Assembly (NCBI RefSeq): GCF_053078305.1
Contig: NZ_CP166879.1
Length of the DNA: 64,000 nucleotides
Direction: 5' to 3' (one strand)
The first letter of the stretch is position 1. The number at the start of each line of letters is the position of its first letter. A program made the translations under genes and the position numbers. A model generated the notes under the pieces. That model saw only the letters and a list, made by a program, of their open reading frames with translations. It did not search any database and was not told the origin of the DNA. This document shows positions 2,643 through 58,378 of the stretch, piece by piece.

Positions 2643-2744
2643 AATTCTCTCGTTCTGATGACAGGTCAGATCCGCTTCACCTGATGAAGCGGTTAGGGGA
2701 GTGCCCCCACTTTAAGGGCGGGCATTGTAGCGCAATCGGCGGGT

Positions 2745-3041
2745 TTAGCTCCAGTGTAAATGTCTGGTGGCGTCCTGGTTTTGGTTAAGGATACGAATGA
2801 CGATAATTTCCCCTGGTGATTGCAGGAAATAAATTACGTGGCGTTCAAAAGGAAGAACAAAAATACCTTCGCCTAATTCAGGTCTGGGCGTACCTATATT
2901 ATTGTTACTCAGAATCTGGAGAACGTCTGAAAGATGTTCCACATATCTGTCGGCTTGTGGTTCGCCGAAATGGTGATAACTGTAATACCAGATGCCTTCT
3001 AAATCCTCATTGGCTTTTGGCATGAGTTTAATAATACGCAC
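2745..3041 (-). CDS. ParE/RelE-family type II toxin
   Basis: 98-aa ORF; ParE-like pattern ...ANEDLEGIWYYS...ADRYV...FERHVIYF...EIIVIRILNQNQDATRHL; starts 1 nt after antitoxin stop. Confidence 0.8.
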   Translation of the reverse strand: MRIIKLMPKANEDLEGIWYYSYHHFGEPQADRYVEHLSDVLQILSNNNIGTPRPELGEGIFVLPFERHVIYFLQSPGEIIVIRILNQNQDATRHLHWS

Positions 3042-3042
3042 A

Positions 3043-3294
3043 TTATTTCCTTATCCCTGCTTTCACCTTCCGTAAAAACGCGTCCTTTTCCCACGGCTGA
3101 GCTTCACCACTACTCAACCCTTCTGCAAGCATGTCACGTAATGCTTGCAGGCGAGACTCTGCTTGCTTTTCTCGAAGTAAGCGCAGTGACTCACGGATCA
3201 CTTCGCTTTGGGTGCGATAGTCGCCGGATTCAATTAAGGACTCGATAAATTCACGCAACTCATCGCCGAGATCAACCGTCATCGTTCTGGCCAT
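3043..3294 (-). CDS. ParD-family antitoxin (RHH/CopG-like DNA-binding)
   Basis: 83-aa ORF MARTMTVDLGDELREFIESLIESGDYRTQSEVIRESLRLLREKQ...; AGGAGA RBS upstream; immediately upstream of toxin. Confidence 0.8.
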   Translation of the reverse strand: MARTMTVDLGDELREFIESLIESGDYRTQSEVIRESLRLLREKQAESRLQALRDMLAEGLSSGEAQPWEKDAFLRKVKAGIRK

Positions 3295-3308
3295 GTTTAT
3301 GCTCTCCT

Positions 3309-3326
3309 GTAAGTAAAAATCTTACA
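3309..3326. promoter_or_regulatory. palindrome TGTAAG-N6-CTTACA just upstream of parD start, candidate autoregulatory operator
   Basis: Inverted repeat read directly at 3309-3314 / 3321-3326. Confidence 0.3.
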
Positions 3327-3537
3327 TCAGTGTATGTCATAAACCGGATAGCGTCACGAAAAGTATTAGAAGATATTTTGGCAGATGAACATGTTCAGGA
3401 GGATAAGCATGGAGATGTTAAACAAAGAAAGCACAATGAGTATTCATCAGTGTCCACTATTTTAATGGCGCAGGTAAATAAATAAGCGTTATTTGGAAAT
3501 AAAGCCGGACGCCAACAACCCACGCCCGGCATCGTAA

Positions 3538-3870
3538 TTACGTATTGTCTTTCACCGTCTGGCTTGTGCCATTGGCTTTAACGGAGGCAATTCCGGTTTC
3601 ACGAGATTGCGCGGTGGCATACATCTGGCTGGAGCCGATAATTTGATGATTGGCGGCTTTCAGATTGAAATAGAATTTGCCGTTGCTTGCCGTTTTTTTC
3701 TCATAGCGTTCTTCTTGCGGGCTGTTGCTACGCACCGACGCGATGCCCTTTTCCGCAGAGGCTTTTGAAGTATACAGCTCGCTGGTGAGGATAGTCTCAC
3801 CATTGCCCGCTTTTAGCACAAACCGGAACTGATTATCACTGCTCTTACTGAGTTCAAACCAACCAGCCAT
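3538..3870 (-). CDS. yegP: YegP (DUF1508/UPF0339) protein, 110 aa from internal ATG
   Basis: MAGWFELSKSSDNQFRFVLKAGNGETILTSELY...; ORF-track frame extends to 3909 but homolog start is M14. Confidence 0.85.
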   Translation of the reverse strand: MAGWFELSKSSDNQFRFVLKAGNGETILTSELYTSKASAEKGIASVRSNSPQEERYEKKTASNGKFYFNLKAANHQIIGSSQMYATAQSRETGIASVKANGTSQTVKDNT

Positions 3871-15284: not shown

Positions 15285-15425
15285 CCCTCCCGAGGAAGGG
15301 GTCTTAAATAAGGAAAGGGTCATGATGAAGATACTCATCATCGTGGTGCTCTTAGTGATTAGCTACCCAGCATACTAAGACTACCAGGGCGGGGGAAACC
15401 CCGCTCTACCCTCACTCCTGAAAGT
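15285..15425 (-). ncRNA. Sib antisense sRNA (antitoxin) copy 1, boundaries approximate
   Basis: Inferred from Ibs/Sib architecture: antisense RNA covering ibs ORF and 5' UTR; boundaries not determinable by eye. Confidence 0.4.
15322..15378 (+). CDS. ibsB: Ibs-family type I toxin peptide (MMKILIIVVLLVISYPAY), IbsB-like
   Basis: ATGATGAAG...TACTAA with AGGAAAGGG RBS; not in ORF track (under 60 aa). Confidence 0.7.
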   Translation: MMKILIIVVLLVISYPAY

Positions 15426-15612
15426 ATGCCTTCACGTTCAGAATGTCAATCCGCAGGCTTTGCAGTCTGCGATCCTGCCAGCAAATATTCTTTGCGAGAC
15501 GTTACGCAATAATAACACAGGAAACTATTTTATCTACGCGTTAGCGATAGACTGAATTCAGGGCGAAAGGAGGTAAGCCGACGATTTCAGCGGGACGCTG
15601 AAACGGGAAAGC

Positions 15613-15753
15613 CCCTCCCGAGGAAGGGGCCTTAAATAAGGAAAGGGTCATGATGAAGTGGATCATCATCGTGGTGCGCTTAGTCATAAGCTTCCCGGCT
15701 TACTAAGACTACCAGGGCGGGGGAAACCCCGCTCTACCCTCACTCCTGAAAGT
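15613..15753 (-). ncRNA. Sib antisense sRNA copy 2, boundaries approximate
   Basis: As copy 1. Confidence 0.4.
15650..15706 (+). CDS. Ibs-family peptide variant (MMKWIIIVVRLVISFPAY) with Arg inside the hydrophobic core
   Basis: Same repeat position and RBS as copies 1 and 3; charged substitution may impair toxicity. Confidence 0.55.
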   Translation: MMKWIIIVVRLVISFPAY

Positions 15754-15941
15754 ATGCCTTCACGATAAGATTGTCAATCTGCAGGCTTTGCAGTCTGCGA
15801 TCCTGCCAGCAAATATTCTTTGCGAGTCGTTACGCAATAATCATAGAGGGAACTATTTTGTTCACGCGTTAGCGATAGACTGCATTCAGGGCGAAAGGAG
15901 GTAAGCCGACGATTTCAGCGGGACGCTGAAACGGGAAACAC

Positions 15942-16085
15942 TCTCCCGGAGAAGAGGGCTTTTAATAAGGAAAGGGTTATGATGAAGCACGTCATCATAC
16001 TGGTGATACTCTTGGTGATTAGCTTCCAGGCTTACTAAGAACACCAGGGGGAGGGGGAAACCTCTCCCTAACCCTCACTCCTGAA
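15942..16085 (-). ncRNA. Sib antisense sRNA copy 3, boundaries approximate
   Basis: As copy 1. Confidence 0.4.
15979..16038 (+). CDS. ibsA: Ibs-family type I toxin peptide (MMKHVIILVILLVISFQAY), IbsA-like
   Basis: One substitution vs recalled IbsA MMKHVIILVILLVISFPAY. Confidence 0.7.
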   Translation: MMKHVIILVILLVISFQAY

Positions 16086-16258
16086 ATTATGTCACTCCGC
16101 CCTTAGTGTCAATCGACGGCTCTCCGTTCTTGCGAGGCGAATAGCAAAATTTTCTGCGCCGCCGGGCCTAATTCTGAAAGTTTCTTCGTTTGCTCTTATT
16201 TCATTATTGCAATCGGTATGATACCGGACCTCAATAATTCTCTAAGAAAGGATTTCTT

Positions 16259-30429: not shown

Positions 30430-31167
30430 TCATTCACTCTCTTTCAAACCAGTTTTAACTGTTTGTGGTTTTGGGTAAGGCTGGACTTTGAATAGCTTTG
30501 TGTTGAGGCGTTTTCTGGCCCTCTTGTTCAGAAACCGGATGTAACGAAACTGTCGGAACTTATGCACACTGGCTCTGTCGATATTAGCCCTCAGATGTTC
30601 ACCTCGTTGTCCGCCTCGTTTAATGGCATTCCTGCAAATCTCGTGATACCACTCGCCATCAAGTTCATAGAATGTTGATTCATGGCTGCCTACATAATCA
30701 AAATTGCTTGCCTGATACACGACACCAAGACAGCCACAACGCTCATCTGCAAACGACTGAACCCACTGTACCTGCGGATAAAGATGCCTGATTAGCTTGA
30801 GCGCGTAACTGATTGCCCTTGATTCGGAGTTTCTCGGCATACAGTCATGCATCCATAGCCGGTTAAGCTCCATATATTCTCGGTTCTGCGTACCCGTTAC
30901 GACGCGTGCACCACTGTTTGGGTTAAGGGCGTAACCCCATTGCATTACGCCAACAAGTTCCCGTTCTGAAAATATACCCAGATGAAGGTAGGAATTATTT
31001 ACGAAACGGTGGCTGTAATGTTTATTGACGATAACCAGTCTGGCCAGCCAGCAACTTATTGTCTCAACCCGCAACTCACGGGAGCCATAACCAACGATAT
31101 TGTCGTTATAGCGAATAAGTTCAGGCGTGCTGATGATTCGGGATGTGACTTGCTTTCTGTTCCCCAC
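30430..31167 (-). CDS. mom: Mom-like DNA modification protein (call by position and operon context; GTG start)
   Basis: 245-aa ORF last before prophage end, overlapping upstream com-like gene as in Mu com-mom; sequence identity to Mu Mom not verified. Confidence 0.55.
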
Positions 31168-35799: not shown

Positions 35800-37413
35800 A
35801 TGAGTCGGAAATACCTCATTCGTATCACTGAGCTGGAAAGGCTGCTCTCTGAGCAGGCTGAAGCCCTCCGTCAGAAAGATCAGCAACTGAGTCTGGTTGA
35901 AGAGACGGAGGCCTTCCTGCGCTCTGCACTGGCACGTGCCGAGGAAAAGATCGAAGAGGAGGAGCGGGAAATAGAACATCTGAGGGCCCAGATAGAAAAA
36001 CTGCGCCGGATGTTGTTCGGTACCCGTTCTGAAAAACTGCAGCGTGAGGTTGAACAGGCTGAGGCCCAACTGAAACAACGCGAACAGGAAAGCGATCGTT
36101 ACAGTGGGCGTGAGGATGACCCGCAGGTTCCCCGCCAGTTGCGACAGTCACGTCATCGTCGTCCGTTACCGGCACATCTTCCCCGTGAAATACACCGTCT
36201 GGAGCCTGAAGAAAGTTGTTGCCCGGAGTGTGGCAGTGAGCTGGATTATCTGGGGGAAGTCAGTGCTGAGCAGCTGGAACTGGTGAGTAGCGCCCTGAAA
36301 GTGATCCGCACTGTTCGGGTAAAAAAAGCCTGTACAAAATGTGACTGTATAGTTGAAGCGCCAGCGCCGTCCCGCCCGATAGAGCGCGGCATCGCGGGCT
36401 CCGGATTACTTGCCCGCGTGTTAACGGGAAAATACTGCGAACACCTGCCACTGTATCGTCAGAGTGAAATCTTTGCCCGCCAGGGCATCGAACTGAGCCG
36501 GGCATTACTCTCCAACTGGGTTGACGCATGTTGTCAGTTAATGACTCTGCTGAATGATACCCTGTACCGTTACGTGATGAACACCCGCAAGGTTCACACT
36601 GACGACACACCAGTAAAAGTGCTGGCAGCGGGCAGAAAAAAGGCAAAAACAGGACGCATCTGGACGTATGTCCGGGATGACCGGAATGCGGGCTCATCAG
36701 AGCCACCGGCGGTCTGGTTCGCCTACTCACCAGACAGGCAGGGAAAACATCCGGTACAACACCTTCGTCCCTTCCGGGGTATCCTGCAGGCGGATGCGTT
36801 CAGCGGTTACGATCGGCTGTTCAGTGCAGAACGTGAAGGTGGTGCACTGACAGAAGTTGCGTGCTGGGCCCATGCCCGGCGAAAAATCCACGATGTATAC
36901 ATCAGCAGCAAAAGTGCGACGGCAGAAGAAGCCCTGAAGCGAATCAGTGAACTGTACGCCATCGAGGATGAAATACGGGGATTACCGGAGTCAGAGCGTC
37001 TTGCCGTCAGGCAGCAGCGAAGCAAAGTGTTACTGACGTCACTGCATGAATGGATGGTGGAGAAGAATGGTACGCTGTCGAAAAAATCCAGACTGGGCGA
37101 AGCGTTCAGCTATGTACTGAATCAGTGGGATGCCCTCTGTTATTACAGTGATGACGGTCTGGCGGAGGCGGATAATAATGCTGCGGAAAGAGCGCTTCGT
37201 GCAGTCTGTCTCGGAAAGAAAAACTTTATGTTCTTTGGCAGCGATCACGGCGGCGAGCGTGGAGCACTGTTGTACGGGCTGATCGGCACCTGCCGTCTGA
37301 ACGGTATCGATCCGGAAGCGTATCTGCGCCATATCCTGAGCGTACTGCCAGAATGGCCTTCCAACCGAGTTGATGAACTCCTGCCATGGAACGTAGTACT
37401 CACCAATAAATAA
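35800..37413 (+). CDS. tnpC: IS66 family transposase TnpC (orf3)
   Basis: 537-aa ORF with leucine-zipper N-terminus, CxxC zinc motifs and DDE-type core. Confidence 0.9.
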   Translation: MSRKYLIRITELERLLSEQAEALRQKDQQLSLVEETEAFLRSALARAEEKIEEEEREIEHLRAQIEKLRRMLFGTRSEKLQREVEQAEAQLKQREQESDRYSGREDDPQVPRQLRQSRHRRPLPAHLPREIHRLEPEESCCPECGSELDYLGEVSAEQLELVSSALKVIRTVRVKKACTKCDCIVEAPAPSRPIERGIAGSGLLARVLTGKYCEHLPLYRQSEIFARQGIELSRALLSNWVDACCQLMTLLNDTLYRYVMNTRKVHTDDTPVKVLAAGRKKAKTGRIWTYVRDDRNAGSSEPPAVWFAYSPDRQGKHPVQHLRPFRGILQADAFSGYDRLFSAEREGGALTEVACWAHARRKIHDVYISSKSATAEEALKRISELYAIEDEIRGLPESERLAVRQQRSKVLLTSLHEWMVEKNGTLSKKSRLGEAFSYVLNQWDALCYYSDDGLAEADNNAAERALRAVCLGKKNFMFFGSDHGGERGALLYGLIGTCRLNGIDPEAYLRHILSVLPEWPSNRVDELLPWNVVLTNK

Positions 37414-43465: not shown

Positions 43466-44819
43466 TAATCACCTCCACTGAATGGCCTCCGGGAATGAAC
43501 AGCGGATCAACAATACCGTTACGGCGCACAAAACGTTGCCAGCCGGTACTGTTCCCGGTGGCACGGTACAGGGTCACCAGTGCAGGCTCGGTGGTACGTA
43601 CAGTCACTACTGTTGCACCGGATAGCTGAACTCCCCGTGTATTCAGATCCTCTGTCAGTGCCAGTCTGGCATCACGAAGCGTCAGCGCCGTGGCGGTATA
43701 CCCCTGCCCGGACAGTGTCATCACCTGCCGTTCGAGCGCTTCGCTTAAGTCACGGTTAATGCGCTGAAGATCAACTGAACTTTCCAGCCAGACAGGCCAG
43801 GTACGGTGGGCTGCGTCACTGTCCGGCAGGGTTTCCTGACTGAGAACCTGATCCAGCAGTTTTCCCACGGTCTGTGCCTGGGCCACCACGGCAGCACTCT
43901 GCATTACCGCCCGTATCAGACGAATATTCTTTTGTGCTGCCGGTGTCAGACCGATGAGAGTCTGCGGATTATCCTGCTCATCCAGCACGTAACGCAGGGA
44001 AGATAATGTCCTGTACAGTTGCGGCATTCCCTGAGAGACGGCGGATGTCGTCCGGCCGATACTGCCACCGGGCCGGGTATTCAGGCCTCCTGAAGACAGT
44101 GACGGCAGCGATGGCAGGGTGATCAGGGCACTGAAAAGCCCCGCAAAAGATGAGGCCATGCGGGAAGGTGCTGTCAGTAATGCCGTGGCATTCCCTTTCA
44201 GCGCCGTGAACGTGGCAGTAAAGGCACTGATATCCTGTACAATCCCCATGCCGGAAACGGCATTTTCCAGGGCGGACACCTTATCGCTGATGGTTTCGGT
44301 CATTGCCTGGACATCGTGCATTCCGTCAGAAATCACCGTCCAGCCCGCTTCCAGGGTTTCAAAAACCTGCCCGAGCGCGGTGGTACTCTTCTGCTCCAGA
44401 ATGGCGGCCGTGTCCTGTGTGACAGCAGGTGCAGTATCATCACTTACCGGCGTGACATTAATGGTGAACTCAACCACGCCCTGTTCAGCGGCGTTATAAC
44501 GACTTTCAAAGCTGTTTATCAGCACATTTAACGTGCCGTAATCCGGGTGAAGCAGCTCCCCGGCACCGGGAGCACGAAGGGCATCACGCAGACGATTTCG
44601 CTGCGTCTGAACATCATCCCCCATCACAAGTACACTGAACGTAAATTCAGCCAGTTTAGGTCCCAGATCGTCTGCCCCACCGGTTTCCCGTAACGGATAT
44701 TCCCGACGGACAATGTTTCGCCCGCCACGTTCGCGCTGCTCACGCCAGACGAGGAACGGCACACCACGGAACGCACCACGACCGTCACCAGAGGCCATAA
44801 TTCCCTCCGTTCCAGACAT
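43449..44819 (-). CDS. Mu gp43-like (DNA circulation protein family) tail protein
   Basis: 456-aa ORF between tape measure and gp44. Confidence 0.7.
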   Translation of the reverse strand: MSGTEGIMASGDGRGAFRGVPFLVWREQRERGGRNIVRREYPLRETGGADDLGPKLAEFTFSVLVMGDDVQTQRNRLRDALRAPGAGELLHPDYGTLNVLINSFESRYNAAEQGVVEFTINVTPVSDDTAPAVTQDTAAILEQKSTTALGQVFETLEAGWTVISDGMHDVQAMTETISDKVSALENAVSGMGIVQDISAFTATFTALKGNATALLTAPSRMASSFAGLFSALITLPSLPSLSSGGLNTRPGGSIGRTTSAVSQGMPQLYRTLSSLRYVLDEQDNPQTLIGLTPAAQKNIRLIRAVMQSAAVVAQAQTVGKLLDQVLSQETLPDSDAAHRTWPVWLESSVDLQRINRDLSEALERQVMTLSGQGYTATALTLRDARLALTEDLNTRGVQLSGATVVTVRTTEPALVTLYRATGNSTGWQRFVRRNGIVDPLFIPGGHSVEVISEQQG

Positions 44820-46854
44820 TCACATCCAGTCCGTGACCGGACGTGTCATCAATATCAATACTGCGAGCCTGCCACCCTTCCGGGGCAACCAGCTCCACAC
44901 GGGCAGAGGCTTTTTGTACCGCCTGTCCACTGCTTTCATCATCACTGCCCCGTAATTTCTGCCAGGCTTCAGTCAGCCACCCCCCCAGATAGTTACCGAG
45001 ATAGCTGCCCACCGTGGAACCAATGGCAATCCCCACAGGTCCGGCTGCCGCCCCCAGCGCACCACCGGCAATACTGCCTGCAAGAGAGCCGACCGCTTCT
45101 CCCTTGTCTGTGATACTGGCGCTGCCATCCAGCAGAACCGGGGCTGCCATCGCGCCAGCCCACAGGGCACCGCCACCCAGCCGTCCAGCCAGTCCACCGG
45201 CACTGCGGAAAAAGCCGGAGAAACGCCCCAGTCCCATGCGGTTACCGGCAGACGAAAGCAACCCACCGGCGCGCCCCATCATGCGCCCCCAGAACCCTGA
45301 CCCACCAGAAGAGGGCGACGGTGGCACAGGGGACGGTGGCAGGGGAGGCGTGACCGGTCTTCCGCGCCCCGGTCCGCGTTTCCTGCGACCCCGCCCCTGA
45401 CGTCCGCCTGAGGATGTATCGGTCGCGCCGGTGCCGGACAGCCCTCCTGCGGGCCAGTTTGTTACAAGCACTGGCTGAACGGCTGCCGGATTTACCCCGG
45501 TAAGAAAGTTTATAAAGCGCTGGCCGCGTCCTGGCGGCGTTCCCGGTACGGTAGTTTGTGGTTTGCGGAAAGGAGAGGTCAGCACGGCCGCCGCGGATAA
45601 TCCGTACCCCAACAATGCCGCTCCTGGTCGCAGTGCTCCCAGCCCGATTGCGCGGACTACCTTCAGTGCACGGGTGGCGAGATACATGTACAGCAGGTAT
45701 TTCGCGGCGGTCTGTGCCCCCTGACCAATGCGATCCAGCGCATCACCATAGCCCGCATCCCGCAGAGCCTGAAGCGTGTCGCGTACCTTTCTGATCGCCT
45801 GATAAAACCCTGTCACTGCATCACGGGCATACTCAAAGCCCTGGTTCATGGCTGATGCTGTGCTTTCCGCCAGGGAATGGTAACTGCCATCAGATTTGGC
45901 ACTGTCAACCCATGAAAGAAATCCCCTGAGATTACCCTTCAGTTTTTCAAATGGCCCACTGTCCATCACATCCCGGGCAAACTGATCCCAGACGTCACCC
46001 ATCATGGCCGTCAGGCCACTCCAGGAATTCATTGCGTCCTTTTGTGCTCCCCTGGCCTGTTCCGCCAGCGTCTGAAATAACAGGCGAATACTGTCCGGCC
46101 CAAGCAGCCCTTTTTCACCAAGTTTTCTGACCACTTTCTGGTCCACACCCAGACGATCAGCCAGCACGCGGTAGGCATTAATGCCGTAGGTGGCAAGAAT
46201 ATTTGCATCCGCCGCCTGAATACTGCCTCTTGCATACATCTGTTTCAGTTGCAGGGATGCCCCCTGTGCATCGGACAGTGACCAGCCGCCCACGGCACCC
46301 TGATCCTGAAGCATGGTGACAAAATTTCGGGCCTCCCTGTCACTCATACCAAAGCCCAGACTGGACGTATATTCCTGCATGACGCCAGCCAGCCCCCAGG
46401 TGGTTTCCTTCGCATTCTGTATTGCCCACCTGCGGACATCATCCGTTTTCGCCCGATCCCCTTTGTAAAGGGAGTTCAGGCGAATCATATAGGTTTCCAT
46501 CTCCGCTGCCGGGCGAATAAATCCCCGGTTAAAGCCATATACAGCAGCACCACCGGCCAGCATTCCGTAAAGATTGCTGATCCGCCCGATGGTGCCGGTA
46601 ATACTGCCCTGAAGACGGTCAAAATCAGAAGTAACATGGCGGATACTGCCCCGCACCCCGGCCAGCGTGCGCTGCATCCTGCTTCCGAGTACATCTGTTT
46701 CCTGCCCGGCACGGCGGGCAGCATTTCCCAGACCACCCAGCCCCGCCTGGCCGGAGTGTGAGAATGCCCCCAGCTCCTGAGACCACTGGCGGGATTTGGC
46801 TGAGATATTGCCGAGCAAATCAACTATCAGAGATGCTCTGAGATTTCGGGCCAT
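44785..46854 (-). CDS. tail tape measure protein (Mu gp42-like)
   Basis: 689-aa ORF with long helical regions and Gly/Pro-rich low-complexity stretch. Confidence 0.8.
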   Translation of the reverse strand: MARNLRASLIVDLLGNISAKSRQWSQELGAFSHSGQAGLGGLGNAARRAGQETDVLGSRMQRTLAGVRGSIRHVTSDFDRLQGSITGTIGRISNLYGMLAGGAAVYGFNRGFIRPAAEMETYMIRLNSLYKGDRAKTDDVRRWAIQNAKETTWGLAGVMQEYTSSLGFGMSDREARNFVTMLQDQGAVGGWSLSDAQGASLQLKQMYARGSIQAADANILATYGINAYRVLADRLGVDQKVVRKLGEKGLLGPDSIRLLFQTLAEQARGAQKDAMNSWSGLTAMMGDVWDQFARDVMDSGPFEKLKGNLRGFLSWVDSAKSDGSYHSLAESTASAMNQGFEYARDAVTGFYQAIRKVRDTLQALRDAGYGDALDRIGQGAQTAAKYLLYMYLATRALKVVRAIGLGALRPGAALLGYGLSAAAVLTSPFRKPQTTVPGTPPGRGQRFINFLTGVNPAAVQPVLVTNWPAGGLSGTGATDTSSGGRQGRGRRKRGPGRGRPVTPPLPPSPVPPSPSSGGSGFWGRMMGRAGGLLSSAGNRMGLGRFSGFFRSAGGLAGRLGGGALWAGAMAAPVLLDGSASITDKGEAVGSLAGSIAGGALGAAAGPVGIAIGSTVGSYLGNYLGGWLTEAWQKLRGSDDESSGQAVQKASARVELVAPEGWQARSIDIDDTSGHGLDVNVWNGGNYGLW

Positions 46855-47845: not shown

Positions 47846-49348
47846 TCACAAAATGAAACGGATCTGTGCTGCCAGGAAGCGGAACTGGTTAACCAGATCC
47901 GGCGTGCATAACACGTCAAGACGGTTTCGATCTGACGCATTACGCTCCACAAGCAGATTCTTTTTAAAGGTGTCCAGATTTTCGACCAGCCCGAGTTCCA
48001 CCCACTCTTCACCCAGCGAAATTAACTGAAGCTTCATGATCTCCGGTGTCACGATATTCTGACCGGCACGAACGGGCGTCCCGTCATCAGCCAGTTTATG
48101 GCGCGGAAAACGTTGTGTGATAAAAGTACGCAGGGAATAACGCAGCCAGGAGAGGGTGTAGATGGTTTCCACATCCAGATAGCTGGGATCACTTTCGCCG
48201 TACACGTTCTGGCGATACATGGTCACCTGACGTTCGATCTGAACCACATCACCGGCAGCCACACTGACCGTGGCAATCCCTCCCCACAGCAGACTGTTAC
48301 GCTCTTCACGCGTCAGACGATCGGCCGGAGCCGGGGCCATGCGTGACGGAAGCGCCAGCGTCTGAAGCGGACGCGCAGGATCTGCTCCCAGAGAGGGTGC
48401 ACAGGTGGCGCAGACCGCCGCGGCCCAGAGGTAATCCGGTTCAGGGGCTTTGGGAATGGATGTGCAGGTCGCCAGAAAATCATTGCGTTTTGCCCCGAAT
48501 GCCTGCACCTCACCAAACGTGCCGGTATGTGCCAGCCACAGCACGCCGTCAGACATTTTGGCCGGTCCCCAGCGTTTCAGAAGCTCATCACTGATGATTT
48601 TCAGGTTTGCATCATCCTTATAGGGCATGACGACATAGTTGTACTGGCGATCGCCCATACCCGCCACGCTTCGGGTGATATCCGGGTTAGCCGCTTTTTG
48701 TTTCGGATAGGCTATAGCGACCTGTATTCCTTCCGGGGTTGCTTCCCCGTCGTGATAGTTCAGGCGCACATCATGCACGGAGCATTCACCGGTAAACCGG
48801 GCGGTGATCCCCAGAGACCCTTTCAGACCTGCGCCATTATCACCACTTCCTGCACCAGAGGAGGCCGTGAAGGGCGCGTCAGGATCGGCATTGATCAGCG
48901 CGGCCAGCTCGTCGGTCAGTTCTTTGCCTTTCTTACCTTTTGGTGCCGGGAGTGTATAACGTCGCCCCCCCACGCAGGCATAAACAATCCCGTCACGGGT
49001 GACCGTTCCGGTCAGATTCATGGCCGCAGCCGTTGCCTGTCCGGTGCCGTTCCCCTGAGCAATGGCATACAGTTCAGCATCAGGATTGATGGCGATAAAT
49101 TCCGCCACCATCAGGGCAATCATGGAGCCGCGCCCCCAGAGTTCTGTTGCCTGAGACGCACGGGTGATCCTGACCGGAACATCCAGAACACCGGTACCGT
49201 CCACGGCATTCTCTTTCATTCTCGCCTGACCAAACAGCAGTACACACTGACGCTGTGCCGGGGTGCCGGTGACAGCCATGGAGTTATTAAACTCAACCTC
49301 AATCAGCGGTATACGGCGGTCATTACCGATCCCGTCAAAATTAATCAT
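47846..49348 (-). CDS. tail sheath protein (Mu gp39/L-like)
   Basis: 500-aa ORF. Confidence 0.85.
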   Translation of the reverse strand: MINFDGIGNDRRIPLIEVEFNNSMAVTGTPAQRQCVLLFGQARMKENAVDGTGVLDVPVRITRASQATELWGRGSMIALMVAEFIAINPDAELYAIAQGNGTGQATAAAMNLTGTVTRDGIVYACVGGRRYTLPAPKGKKGKELTDELAALINADPDAPFTASSGAGSGDNGAGLKGSLGITARFTGECSVHDVRLNYHDGEATPEGIQVAIAYPKQKAANPDITRSVAGMGDRQYNYVVMPYKDDANLKIISDELLKRWGPAKMSDGVLWLAHTGTFGEVQAFGAKRNDFLATCTSIPKAPEPDYLWAAAVCATCAPSLGADPARPLQTLALPSRMAPAPADRLTREERNSLLWGGIATVSVAAGDVVQIERQVTMYRQNVYGESDPSYLDVETIYTLSWLRYSLRTFITQRFPRHKLADDGTPVRAGQNIVTPEIMKLQLISLGEEWVELGLVENLDTFKKNLLVERNASDRNRLDVLCTPDLVNQFRFLAAQIRFIL

Positions 49349-55141: not shown

Positions 55142-56723
55142 CCAGCATCCCCTTCATTTCCGCAGCAAACATGGCATCACTGAGCAGCGTCATCAGGCGG
55201 GAATCATCCATTTCACGGTAAAGGGCGGGCAGGTCTGCCAGTGCCTCCGCCAGCCCCCGCGTTCTGATGGCATCAATGACCGGCTCCAGTAGCGGGTCGA
55301 TGGCCTCCTGTAACCGGCGGGCAGGCACCGCATCCCCCATGTCGTCCAGTTCATCACGGGGGCTGCTTTTCGCTTCCGGCAGTCTGGCAGCCAGCGCTGT
55401 CTGCTCTGTCTTCTCCTGTTTTTCCGGTGGCATCTCTTTGTCTGTCTGAGCAGGTTCATTTCCACTCTGACGGACACGGAAGATGGCTTCACCGGGCGTG
55501 GGCTGCGGAATACCGGTCTGCTCCCTTATCCAGGGATCAGGAATATCCATCCCCGTACTGAGCTGCATCACCGCACTGGTGATTTTGGTGATATCCCCCG
55601 GCTCTTTTGTCTGGAAACAGATACGCGGCAGGCGACGGATATCAATGGCGTGGGCGGTGTTCAGGGCATACAGCGGATACACCAGATCGCGGTTCAGCGT
55701 GGCGGCCAGCTGGCGTAAATCAGAATCCCTGATTTCCCGGCGCACCTCGTTATGCACTTCACCCAGCGAGCGCGCGCCTTTGTCTCCGGCTTCCGTGGTC
55801 AGCGTGCCGCCGAGTATTGCTTTGGAGATGGAACGCTCCCCCCACGAAATCATGGTTTCAAACGGATCGGCCTGACCGTTCGCGGCTGCCTGAAACTCCA
55901 GCGACATCCCGGCCGGGATGATCCCGCCTGTACGTCGCCCGATATCCATCACCGCCCGCATCAGGGCGCTTTTCTGCTCCGGTGTTGCCCCGGACGGGTA
56001 TTTACCGACCTTCATCGGCAGGCCGTACACCTCCAGAAATTCAGCCAGATCGCGCACGGAATAGTTTTTGAAAATGAACGGCCAGATAAGCGTTCTGACA
56101 AGCCCTGTTGCGCCGCCGTAACCGGTGCGTGAACGTGACTGATGCACTATCCAGCCAAAGGGCTGAAACGCCACCCCGGCATGGCTGCCGTCACGCAGCC
56201 GCAGTTCGCTCAAATCATCCGGGTTAAGGCAGAAATGCCCGCTGTCACGCCAGCGGATGGCGCGGATGATGTGCATTTTACCGAGCATCCCGTGCTCAAT
56301 CTCCATGCAGGAATAGCCTTTCAGGATGGCATCGGTGGCATCAAACAGCATGGCATCAAACCAGTCGGCGGAATGCAGGTATTCGTCGAGCATTTCCGCG
56401 TCCTTTTTCTCATTCGCGCTGGCGTTCGGGGGCGGCTCAATACTCCAGGGCACCCCCTGAATGGCAAGACGTCGCTTGCCCAGCTCTGCAAAAAGATGGG
56501 TATCCTTTTCTTCAATGTCAGCGGCCAGATCGGACTGGGCAATCAGATCGCCACGTTCAGCCCCGCGAAGGCACTGTGCCGCCCGGTTCGGGGTGATACC
56601 CGAGGCCGGATGCTCAATATAACGGCTGGCAATCTGCGGAATATCCAGCACGGCACTCTGCATCTCCGGGTCAAAGGAGAAAGGTTTTCCGTCAAGATCA
56701 ATTATGCGTCCCACTACCAGCAC
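55125..56723 (-). CDS. portal protein (Mu gp29-like)
   Basis: 532-aa ORF after terminase large subunit. Confidence 0.8.
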   Translation of the reverse strand: MLVVGRIIDLDGKPFSFDPEMQSAVLDIPQIASRYIEHPASGITPNRAAQCLRGAERGDLIAQSDLAADIEEKDTHLFAELGKRRLAIQGVPWSIEPPPNASANEKKDAEMLDEYLHSADWFDAMLFDATDAILKGYSCMEIEHGMLGKMHIIRAIRWRDSGHFCLNPDDLSELRLRDGSHAGVAFQPFGWIVHQSRSRTGYGGATGLVRTLIWPFIFKNYSVRDLAEFLEVYGLPMKVGKYPSGATPEQKSALMRAVMDIGRRTGGIIPAGMSLEFQAAANGQADPFETMISWGERSISKAILGGTLTTEAGDKGARSLGEVHNEVRREIRDSDLRQLAATLNRDLVYPLYALNTAHAIDIRRLPRICFQTKEPGDITKITSAVMQLSTGMDIPDPWIREQTGIPQPTPGEAIFRVRQSGNEPAQTDKEMPPEKQEKTEQTALAARLPEAKSSPRDELDDMGDAVPARRLQEAIDPLLEPVIDAIRTRGLAEALADLPALYREMDDSRLMTLLSDAMFAAEMKGMLDGTGD

Positions 56724-58378
56724 CCCCGATCAAATTCATGATATGCCTCATCGTCATCACGATAACCGCCCTCCATTGCCCGCGACCGCTCCGGCAGCGC
56801 CTGACAGGCTGATTCATCCAGGATGAAGCCCTCCATGTATGACGCCCGGTTTGCCATACAGAGCGCCACGGCAAAATCGCCATGGCGGCGGGCGTTCACA
56901 GCCGTTGCGTTCTGGTCCTTCGTGCGCCCCTTGTCGATTTGCGGGATACCGTTCACCATCTTCACATGGCGCAAATCATCAAGCGTGGTCTGATGGCGGG
57001 CGACGAGGATATTCTGATCTTCAAACTCGGCCTTCAGTTTTGGCATCCACTCGCCGTACCACTTCGGCGATAACATCACGCAGTCGATGATGTCCGGGCC
57101 AAAGGCCAGCAGCGCGGCTTCGGCCAGATAGCCGCCGTTACCGGTGGCGTCGAACGCCGCACCGACCAGCGCCGGAACGCGGGTCAGGATGTACATCATC
57201 ACCTGCTCCTGCTGGGCATACGGCAGGTTGCGCAGCTCCACGCGAAACACCTCGCGTTTTGCCAGGGATTCAGTGATTTCCAGCAGCACAAAGCAGGACA
57301 GGTCACCGGTGCGGGCAAAGTCTTCCCCGAAGCTGAAGCGGGAACGGGGATTTAACGCCTCTAAAAGCGGTTTTAAATGTTCTTCACACCAGGTTAAAAC
57401 TTCCGATTCACGCAGCCATGCGGCACGGCTGATGAAGTCGTCCGGGGCTTCAAACGTCAGAATCGGGATGTCGCGGATCATCGCCATTTCAATAAGTGCG
57501 TGAGGAATATAGGCACCGCCGGATTTTTTCGGGATACAGCCGTATTCCTCGTCGGCATCCTCACGGGTCGGGGCGTTTTTGTAGAGATCATCACGCCACT
57601 TCTGCTCGCTTTCCGGTGACCATTCGCGGCCGGTGACATAACAGATACGACGGTACAACCCGTCCGTAATGGCATCATCCAGGGTAATGCGGTGGACGCT
57701 GTAATCCTTGCGCCCCTCGCGGGCTTCCTGAATGTACTGATTAAACAGATTATCGACGCCGTTATGCGTGGAGATAATACGCACGCGCGCGCCCCACATG
57801 GTAAGCGCCATTGCCGCCTTGAGAAGTTCATCCAGCGACTCGTGGAACGCGGCTTCATCAATCACCACATCCCCCTGAAGGCCGCGCAGGTTTGACGGAC
57901 GGGAAGACAGCGCCTGAATTTTGAATCCACTGTTCGGAAAGCGGATCATGTAGGTCAGAATTTCTTCTTTTTTATCCCGATCCCAGAAGGTCTGCTCATA
58001 CACATCAGCATCGGCCAGCTGGTTAAAGGCACGGGAGAACAATGCACAGGCAGAAATATATTCCAGCGCCATCTCCTGCTTTGACCCCACATAAAACACA
58101 TTGCGGCCACCACGCCGCTTCGGTTTTGCAGCGGTAATGACGTTACGCCCGGCTTCCGCCCAGGTAAGCCCGGTGCGGCGGGATTTTTCCGCGATGCAGA
58201 CCTCGCTTTCATCCTCAAACCAGCGGGCCTGATAATCCAGAAACACCGGCATATCACCGGGCAAATCAAGGCTGTCCGGCACATCCACGCCCAGCAGGGC
58301 TTTTTCACCGGCCAGATCAATTTTGCGGGTGGAGACGGTATTCGTCAGTAAGGGTGAGCGTTCTTCGGCGTTATTCAT
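56714..58378 (-). CDS. terminase large subunit (Mu gp28-like)
   Basis: 554-aa ORF. Confidence 0.85.
   Translation of the reverse strand: MNNAEERSPLLTNTVSTRKIDLAGEKALLGVDVPDSLDLPGDMPVFLDYQARWFEDESEVCIAEKSRRTGLTWAEAGRNVITAAKPKRRGGRNVFYVGSKQEMALEYISACALFSRAFNQLADADVYEQTFWDRDKKEEILTYMIRFPNSGFKIQALSSRPSNLRGLQGDVVIDEAAFHESLDELLKAAMALTMWGARVRIISTHNGVDNLFNQYIQEAREGRKDYSVHRITLDDAITDGLYRRICYVTGREWSPESEQKWRDDLYKNAPTREDADEEYGCIPKKSGGAYIPHALIEMAMIRDIPILTFEAPDDFISRAAWLRESEVLTWCEEHLKPLLEALNPRSRFSFGEDFARTGDLSCFVLLEITESLAKREVFRVELRNLPYAQQEQVMMYILTRVPALVGAAFDATGNGGYLAEAALLAFGPDIIDCVMLSPKWYGEWMPKLKAEFEDQNILVARHQTTLDDLRHVKMVNGIPQIDKGRTKDQNATAVNARRHGDFAVALCMANRASYMEGFILDESACQALPERSRAMEGGYRDDDEAYHEFDRGCW

Follow-up and report, generated by a model that had tools for sequence, protein, structure and literature searches.

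The window analysed here, a stretch of 64,000 nucleotides from contig NZ_CP166879.1 (RefSeq assembly GCF_053078305.1), carries between yegP and yegQ (trhP) two small genes that are best explained as an intact chromosomal type II ParD/ParE toxin-antitoxin (TA) operon borne on a 770-bp cassette, a reading to which we assign a probability of about 0.85. Both genes lie on the minus strand with the antitoxin first, a layout that is annotated identically in other genomes. The antitoxin gene parD (3043-3294) starts with ATG and encodes a protein of 83 amino acids, with a predicted N-terminal ribbon-helix-helix (RHH) domain and a C-terminal toxin-binding tail; the toxin gene parE (2745-3041) starts with GTG and encodes 98 amino acids. 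The TAA stop of parD (3045-3043) and the GTG of parE (3041-3039) are separated by a single nucleotide (3042). A Shine-Dalgarno-like AAGGAAA (3046-3052, minus strand), read from the sequence and presumed to serve parE, lies within the 3' end of parD, and its position together with the 1-nt gap suggests that parE is translationally coupled to parD. A Shine-Dalgarno sequence for parD itself, AGGAGAG (3302-3308, minus strand), was located 7 nt 5' of the ATG by sequence and allele comparison; other alleles carry GGCGGGC at this site, with one base fewer. That the pair constitutes a functional ParDE module is in our opinion very likely, and it is a routine, ordinary example of the standard two-gene kind.

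The assignment of the antitoxin draws on several family models. The 83-residue protein matched Pfam ParD_antitoxin (PF03693) with an E value of 4.7e-19, starting from model position 1, and TIGR02606 with 88 bits against a cutoff of 46; it also gave a weak match to RHH_1 (0.0034) and matched the RHH region of NikR. Among solved structures the best match was PrpA (7ycs_D, E value 1.9e-27), and the ParD proteins of Vibrio cholerae (VcParD2), Caulobacter crescentus (CcParD1) and Mycobacterium tuberculosis (MtbParD1) were recovered as well. These matches place the antitoxin in the ParD family, with an RHH domain at its N terminus. The toxin was identified from the list of open reading frames (ORFs), from Pfam ParE_toxin (PF05016, E value 2e-13) and from four solved toxins in PDB, namely PrpT, M. 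tuberculosis ParE1 (MtbParE1), C. crescentus ParE1 (CcParE1) and V. cholerae ParE2 (VcParE2), with E values of 2e-12 to 7e-7; a profile of 36 relatives matched the same four at 1e-24 to 1e-28. An AlphaFold2 model built on the alignment of the 36 relatives reached a predicted local distance difference test score (pLDDT) of 92.8 and a predicted template modelling score (pTM) of 0.83. When this model was compared with PDB by Foldseek, the top 23 matches were all ParE-type toxins, with template modelling (TM) scores of 0.65-0.88, and of at least 0.73 for all except the last. By sequence the toxin is a member of the ParE family, and its model shows the ParE fold. Its protein is identical to the product WP_001220181.1 in MDR_56, 2015C-3163 and GF4-3.

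An inverted repeat, TGTAAG-N7-CTTACA, is found at 3308-3326; in the sense of the operon (3326-3308) it reads TGTAAG-ATTTTTA-CTTACA and lies 13 nt 5' of the parD ATG. The window contains it a single time, against 0.03 occurrences expected even with one mismatch allowed. Six base pairs per arm are weak evidence by themselves, and it is the recurrence of the repeat that carries the case for an operator: each of 22 fetched loci, which represent at least nine genera, has the palindrome exactly once and always directly 5' of the parD start codon (sampled from Escherichia, Pseudocitrobacter, Salmonella, there on a plasmid, Yersinia, Buttiauxella, Cedecea, Pantoea, Enterobacter, Rahnella and Citrobacter). 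The sequence around it differs among the 22 loci, and some of them are relatives in unrelated contexts, ranging from a Salmonella plasmid to a site beside phage lysis genes in Yersinia mollaretii and to loci in Buttiauxella, Cedecea, Pantoea, Enterobacter ludwigii, Rahnella and Citrobacter braakii. This palindrome, putatively assigned from its conservation across genera, is very likely the ParD operator. A probable parDE promoter (3329-3357, minus strand) consists of GTGACG (3357-3352), a 17-nt spacer and TACACT (3334-3329). E. coli and Pseudocitrobacter retain both hexamers and the 17-nt spacing around a spacer that differs in sequence, and plasmid relatives show TGGACG-N17-TAGACT or TTGACG-N17-CAAACT at the same position; the -10-like hexamer, TACACT here, is TATACT, TAGACT or TAAACT elsewhere. 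Transcription would start in the left arm of the palindrome, which is the usual position for an RHH autorepressor.

A preliminary description of this DNA, made from its letters, had proposed a ParD/ParE-type module between yegP and yegQ, formed by an RHH antitoxin and a ParE-fold toxin tightly coupled at 1-nt spacing, with an operator-like palindrome at the promoter. Both ORFs and their family matches confirm the module, the ORF list gives exactly the spacing proposed, Pfam, TIGR02606 and the ParD structures agree on the antitoxin, the toxin model and its closest structural matches uphold the fold, and the palindrome has proved to be unique in the window and kept across genera. The end coordinate given there, 3330, has to be revised, as it cuts the promoter: the conserved -10/-35 pair extends to 3357 and the cassette covers 2734-3503.

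The limits of the whole cassette (2734-3503, minus strand, 770 bp) were obtained by aligning the window with TA-bearing and empty alleles and from the junctions across genera; in K-12-type genomes, 21 bp (GCTTTACCAGAGCCCCCCACA) stand in its place. Among 5,426 complete E. coli genomes, the yegP-yegQ spacer was found in three states. The ParDE pair, in single copy and always chromosomal, is present in 1,843 genomes (34%), the K-12-type empty spacer of 146 bp in 3,182 (59%), and an island of 5.3 kb, encoding PcfJ-domain, DUF1266, DUF4034 and hypothetical proteins, in 298 (5.5%). The empty group includes O157:H7 DEC4E and one ST131 strain, and the island group includes the type strain DSM 30083 as well as E. 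coli A0 34/86 (locus L009, 2794-7509). At either edge of the island a piece of the ParDE cassette survives (the last six codons of parE on one side, about 70 bp on the other), and the island has therefore overwritten a pre-existing ParDE. The preliminary description had given K-12 as lacking the pair and had taken the pair for a strain-variable island. Both statements hold: the 146-bp spacer of K-12 BW25113 is devoid of parDE genes, and with about a third of the genomes carrying the pair between conserved flanks, it is an accessory islet at a fixed site between conserved genes and not a core element. The cassette of O55:H7 DEC5B (H33) is 99.5% identical to that of the window and the spacer of O157:H7 DEC4E (H74) is empty; this difference may ride on the O55-to-O157 recombination tract, since in K-12 the yegP-yegQ locus lies within about 50 kb of the O-antigen region. 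NCBI's pipeline already names the pair in 1,843 complete genomes, so the module as such is already known.

The empty alleles of K-12, E. albertii, Citrobacter amalonaticus and Pseudocitrobacter, the last two lacking yegP at the locus, share TTTAC[CT]-N17-TACAAT 5' of yegQ, which looks like the ancestral yegQ promoter. This shared element argues that the empty layout is ancestral and ParDE an insertion. The insertion is old, and the cassette is polymorphic in E. coli and in Pseudocitrobacter. E. whittamii has the cassette at the same junction, with a ParE that is 96% identical. Some Pseudocitrobacter strains, which were found via an exact YegQ match to WP_015963810.1, carry it between baeR and yegQ, again at the same junction; there ParD is 92% and ParE 80% identical to the window proteins, and nucleotide identity is 74-80% as compared with 76-86% for the flanking genes. 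The junction between cassette and chromosome (2727-2737, minus strand) reads GATT and GCGCTAC, with the cut between them, and the GCGCTAC part (2727-2733) is also present in empty sites. The 11-mer GATTGCGCTAC recurs 3' of parE on the Salmonella plasmid, with 0.01 chance occurrences expected in the window. The junction fits recombination at a 7-nt microhomology, either from plasmid to chromosome or in the reverse direction, and its being common to E. coli, E. whittamii, Pseudocitrobacter and the Salmonella plasmid hints that such cassettes may move by short-microhomology recombination; the mobility of TA cassettes has been described as an open question (PMC7167474). Two other histories were considered. 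The idea that the 21-bp filler of K-12 is a scar left when the 3' end of parE was deleted (TTTACCAGAGC resembling TTTACACTGGAGC) was rejected, given that the empty alleles share TTTAC[CT]-N17-TACAAT, and a purely vertical, ancient inheritance, suggested by the Pseudocitrobacter locus, was softened, as other Pseudocitrobacter strains are empty. The cassette is also being lost, through deletion, replacement and IS1 insertion. The 343-bp spacer of Escherichia sp. E3659 (L068 and L069, 2834-3176) is a decayed ParDE remnant that has lost parD and the 5' half of parE but still contains the last ~135 nt of parE together with the far cassette end. In one E. coli contig (L015, 4001-4355) the 3' end of parE is altered by an adjoining IS1 transposase gene, and the product has 102 residues.

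For both window proteins the best match is PrpT/PrpA, encoded by plasmid pMBL6842 of Pseudoalteromonas rubra (PDB 7YCS, 7YCU, 7YCV, 7YCW), with PrpT aligning to the window ParE at an E value of 2.3e-12, a TM score of 0.88 and 33% identity. Like the window pair, PrpTA combines an RHH antitoxin that has a flexible C-terminal toxin-binding domain with a ParE-fold toxin. PrpTA is plasmid-borne, however, and PrpA also controls plasmid copy number, whereas the window module is chromosomal; moreover, the PrpA operator motif, (G/A)TTTG(T/A)AAT(A/G), is unlike the inverted repeat described here. A clade of ParDE pairs from Enterobacteriaceae plasmids has ParE proteins 60-68% and ParD proteins about 91% identical to those of the window and shows the same palindrome and promoter layout, but its parD and parE overlap by 14 nt, its ParD has 88 residues, and it is not located at yegP-yegQ. 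Conjugative plasmids of Klebsiella, Salmonella, E. coli and Citrobacter commonly carry members of this clade, and in the three plasmids examined the pair adjoins a RepB/Rep3 replication gene and a tyrosine recombinase. Classical gyrase-poisoning ParDE systems (RK2; V. cholerae ParDE2, 7R5A; C. crescentus ParDE1, 3KXE; M. tuberculosis ParDE1, 8C24) have the same fold and the same type of partner; their toxins align with the window ParE over the full length at low identity (26-31%) and with TM scores of 0.83-0.84, and in the window toxin an aromatic residue occupies the Trp25 position of VcParE2. ParDE-I, known from IncI/IncF resistance plasmids (Kamruzzaman and Iredell 2019, PMC6614396), is enterobacterial like the window pair. 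ParDE-I stabilises plasmids and raises quinolone tolerance; its parE measures 282 bp, which makes the toxin shorter than the 98 residues found here. PaaR2-PaaA2-ParE2 of E. coli O157:H7 prophages (PDB 5CW7, 5CZF) likewise provides a ParE-fold toxin in E. coli, but it has three components, a non-RHH antitoxin and a prophage location, and its identity to the window toxin is 16-18%, with a TM score of about 0.77. A search of a phage collection returned one partial match only.

Both genes have been under purifying selection. Compared with their E. whittamii counterparts, parD and parE show ratios of nonsynonymous to synonymous substitution rates (dN/dS) of 0.03 and 0.11, respectively; compared with Pseudocitrobacter, where synonymous sites are saturated, their nonsynonymous rates (dN) are 0.05 and 0.13. 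Such long selection on a chromosomal copy suggests some benefit for the host, and a standard ParDE could have been selected for protection against phages or mobile elements through abortive infection, as opposed to selfish addiction. TA systems are often linked to defence (review, PMC7167474), and the yegP-yegQ site, a variable hot spot, accommodates the 5.3-kb island as well. Nevertheless, the PADLOC models yielded no family match for ParD or ParE and no convincing match for the proteins of the island, the sole exception being marginal (E value 5e-4), no defence genes stand beside the pair, and its relatives reside mostly on conjugative plasmids next to replication genes, which is the classic addiction context. 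A selected role in defence is unlikely on this evidence.

A different identity for the toxin, that of a RelE-like ribosome-dependent mRNA endonuclease and not a gyrase poison, has to be weighed against the ParE assignment, because ParE and RelE have a common superfamily fold, the RefSeq product name is merely 'RelE/ParE family toxin', and the structures of RelE, YoeB and YafQ do turn up in the Foldseek list, with TM scores of about 0.5-0.67. These RNases, however, rank below all the ParE structures, with E values more than 1,000-fold worse than those of the top matches. The sequence searches with the toxin matched ParE toxins alone and none of the RelE type, the partner is a ParD-family RHH antitoxin and not RelB, YefM or DinJ, and the model carries the long alpha1-alpha2 hairpin of ParE toxins (residues 8-46). 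We consider membership of the RelE/YoeB/YafQ group very improbable.

With the toxin taken as a ParE, its target is probably DNA gyrase. The ParE toxins of RK2 and Vibrio act on gyrase (PMC7167474; 2025 preprint), and Phe25 of the window toxin aligns with Trp25 of VcParE2, which is a gyrase contact and for which Tyr alone was a full replacement (2025 preprint). PrpT is toxic, causes filaments in E. coli and is neutralised by PrpA (PMC7848731), and ParE-I, encoded on plasmids, triggers SOS and makes cells elongate (PMC6614396). It is from these family relatives that we infer toxicity, neutralisation by ParD, autorepression and a gyrase target for the window pair; for toxicity and its neutralisation, the purifying selection on both genes adds indirect support.

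Several observations pull in the other direction. In vitro inhibition of gyrase is not known for every toxin with a ParE fold, and the word "gyrase" is absent from both papers on PrpT, the closest solved relative. Residue 25 of the window toxin is Phe, whereas the key residue of VcParE2 is Trp and only Tyr substitutes fully for it. No NCBIfam model matches the toxin, and literature searches by neighbouring genes, protein accessions and phylogroup found no study or experiment on this yegP-yegQ module. A scan for the sigma-70 consensus called no minus-strand promoter; by hand count the parDE promoter matches 8 of 12 consensus positions and the cutoff of the scanner is 9, and since the scanner did not call it, conservation is what makes the assignment probable. 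Finally, RefSeq labels the antitoxin of the same allele "frameshifted" in MDR_56 and in O55:H7 DEC5B.

This last label is one of several inconsistent RefSeq calls of the antitoxin, which across loci (L002 1901-2198, L008 1499-1796, L005 1901-2197 and L007 1499-1804) is given as 98 residues, as 101 residues or as a "frameshifted" pseudogene. Both the "frameshifted" calls and the longer starts are probably an artefact of an over-extended start codon. The extra G falls 5' of the ATG at 3294 and thus outside the 83-codon ORF, and the 15-codon extension of the reference crosses the operator. The upstream ATG of Pseudocitrobacter is, by our reading of the fetched locus sequence, not in frame with parD, and the gene is called there as 83 residues. 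Furthermore, the plasmid homologues begin at the same ATGGCC, the Pfam and TIGRFAM models and the PDB homologues begin at residues 1-4 of the 83-residue ORF, and the window allele has the better ribosome-binding site (AGGAG). All family models agree with the conserved ORF, which begins MARTMTVDL. The alternative of a pseudogene pair in decay, its antitoxin frameshifted, as suggested by the flags that PGAP set on the MDR_56 and DEC5B records and by the decay seen elsewhere at the locus (the E3659 remnant, the IS1 truncation of parE and the 5.3-kb island), is highly improbable given these same points, the identity of the 83-residue ParD core in all E. coli alleles examined, and an intact toxin ORF whose protein recurs unchanged in four of six translated E. 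coli alleles.

For the intact ParDE operon, we propose the following mode of action. The GTGACG-N17-TACACT promoter would drive a bicistronic parD-parE transcript, and the 83-residue ParD, as an RHH dimer, would bind TGTAAG-N7-CTTACA over the transcription start and repress its own operon. The C-terminal tail of ParD would wrap ParE and neutralise the toxin, and with the parE GTG placed 1 nt past the parD stop, coupled translation would keep the toxin below the antitoxin. Upon depletion of ParD, free ParE would most likely poison DNA gyrase, leading to DNA breaks, SOS induction and filamentation.

The insertion may also bear on the downstream gene. The -10-like TACAAT of yegQ/trhP is retained (2724-2729, minus strand; outside the operon and given for context), while its -35 partner TTTAC[CT] is missing here; TA-bearing alleles have GGAGCT at the former -35 position, and the insertion removed the -35 element of the yegQ/trhP promoter. 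From the parE stop to the start of trhP there are 102 nt, in which the terminator scan detected no terminator-like site. With the -35 displaced and no terminator before trhP, this gene may rely on parDE read-through, but we hold it doubtful that in cassette strains trhP is transcribed largely by read-through from the ParD-autorepressed promoter. In the yegQ/trhP leader (2643-2733), about 20 nt 5' of the yegQ start, a hairpin can be drawn at 2662-2682 (minus strand; CCGCTTCA-TCAGG-TGAAGCGG). Pseudocitrobacter has a different sequence at this site, CCGCGCAC-ACC-GTG(A)CGCGG, in which pairing is still possible, and the trhP leader may have a conserved structural element here.

At the other end, the cassette is bordered by the intrinsic terminator hairpin of yegP (3504-3530, minus strand), which lies outside it and is present in every yegP-carrying allele. 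The terminator scan flagged the downstream end of this hairpin (stem 3516-3504, then TTTATTT), and the full 27-nt hairpin is our reading of the sequence beyond the flagged part; it is predicted to insulate parDE from yegP transcription. The upstream part of the cassette (3358-3503) is AT-rich and Escherichia-specific, and nothing in the Pseudocitrobacter cassette corresponds to it. Within this part lies a perfect 12-bp palindrome, TGAACATGTTCA (3389-3400), which is kept in E. coli alleles and in E. whittamii and is absent from the Pseudocitrobacter cassette. An ORF of 51 residues on the plus strand (3330-3485) was dismissed, because the alleles differ by two uncompensated 1-nt indels that disrupt its frame; the same indels argue that the upstream part is non-coding. 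The Rfam scan gave no match inside the cassette. The flanking genes are yegQ/TrhP (1281-2642; NF011996, 876 bits) on one side and yegP (3538-3870) on the other, the latter followed by baeR, baeS and mdtD, and the order of genes around the pair is the same in the RefSeq annotation of near-identical loci.

Other elements were observed elsewhere in the window. The small RNA CyaR (RyeE) is encoded at 1113-1198, just 3' of yegQ (Rfam RF00112, 100.7 bits). Three tandem Sib antitoxin RNAs at 15307-16112 (Rfam RF00113, 136-147 bits) imply three ibs/sib type I toxin-antitoxin units 5' of mdtA. At the same mdtA-upstream Sib locus, only two Ibs toxins are annotated in A0 34/86, and K-12 also has two units (sibA, sibB). 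A Mu-like prophage follows asmA, from about 29300 to beyond 60300, with a Mom-like DNA modification protein (30430-31167), tail fibre, baseplate and minor head proteins, a tape measure protein (44785-46854), a tail sheath protein (47846-49348) and a large terminase (56714-58378). A gene for a 537-residue transposase (35800-37413) is inserted within this prophage.

In conclusion, the yegP-yegQ locus shows nothing unexpected, and the discovery value of a textbook ParDE module is small. Of practical use are the annotation correction for the "frameshifted", 98-residue and 101-residue antitoxin calls and a well-supported operator and probable promoter for this clade of ParD. The three-state polymorphism of the spacer (empty, ParDE or 5.3-kb island) is usable as a marker. 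Plasmid-borne toxins of the ParE family are linked to quinolone tolerance (PMC6614396), and the chromosomal copy that a third of E. coli carry may therefore merit attention. And if trhP did depend on read-through from the parDE promoter, the tRNA U34 hydroxylase TrhP would be coupled to toxin-antitoxin regulation in a third of E. coli.

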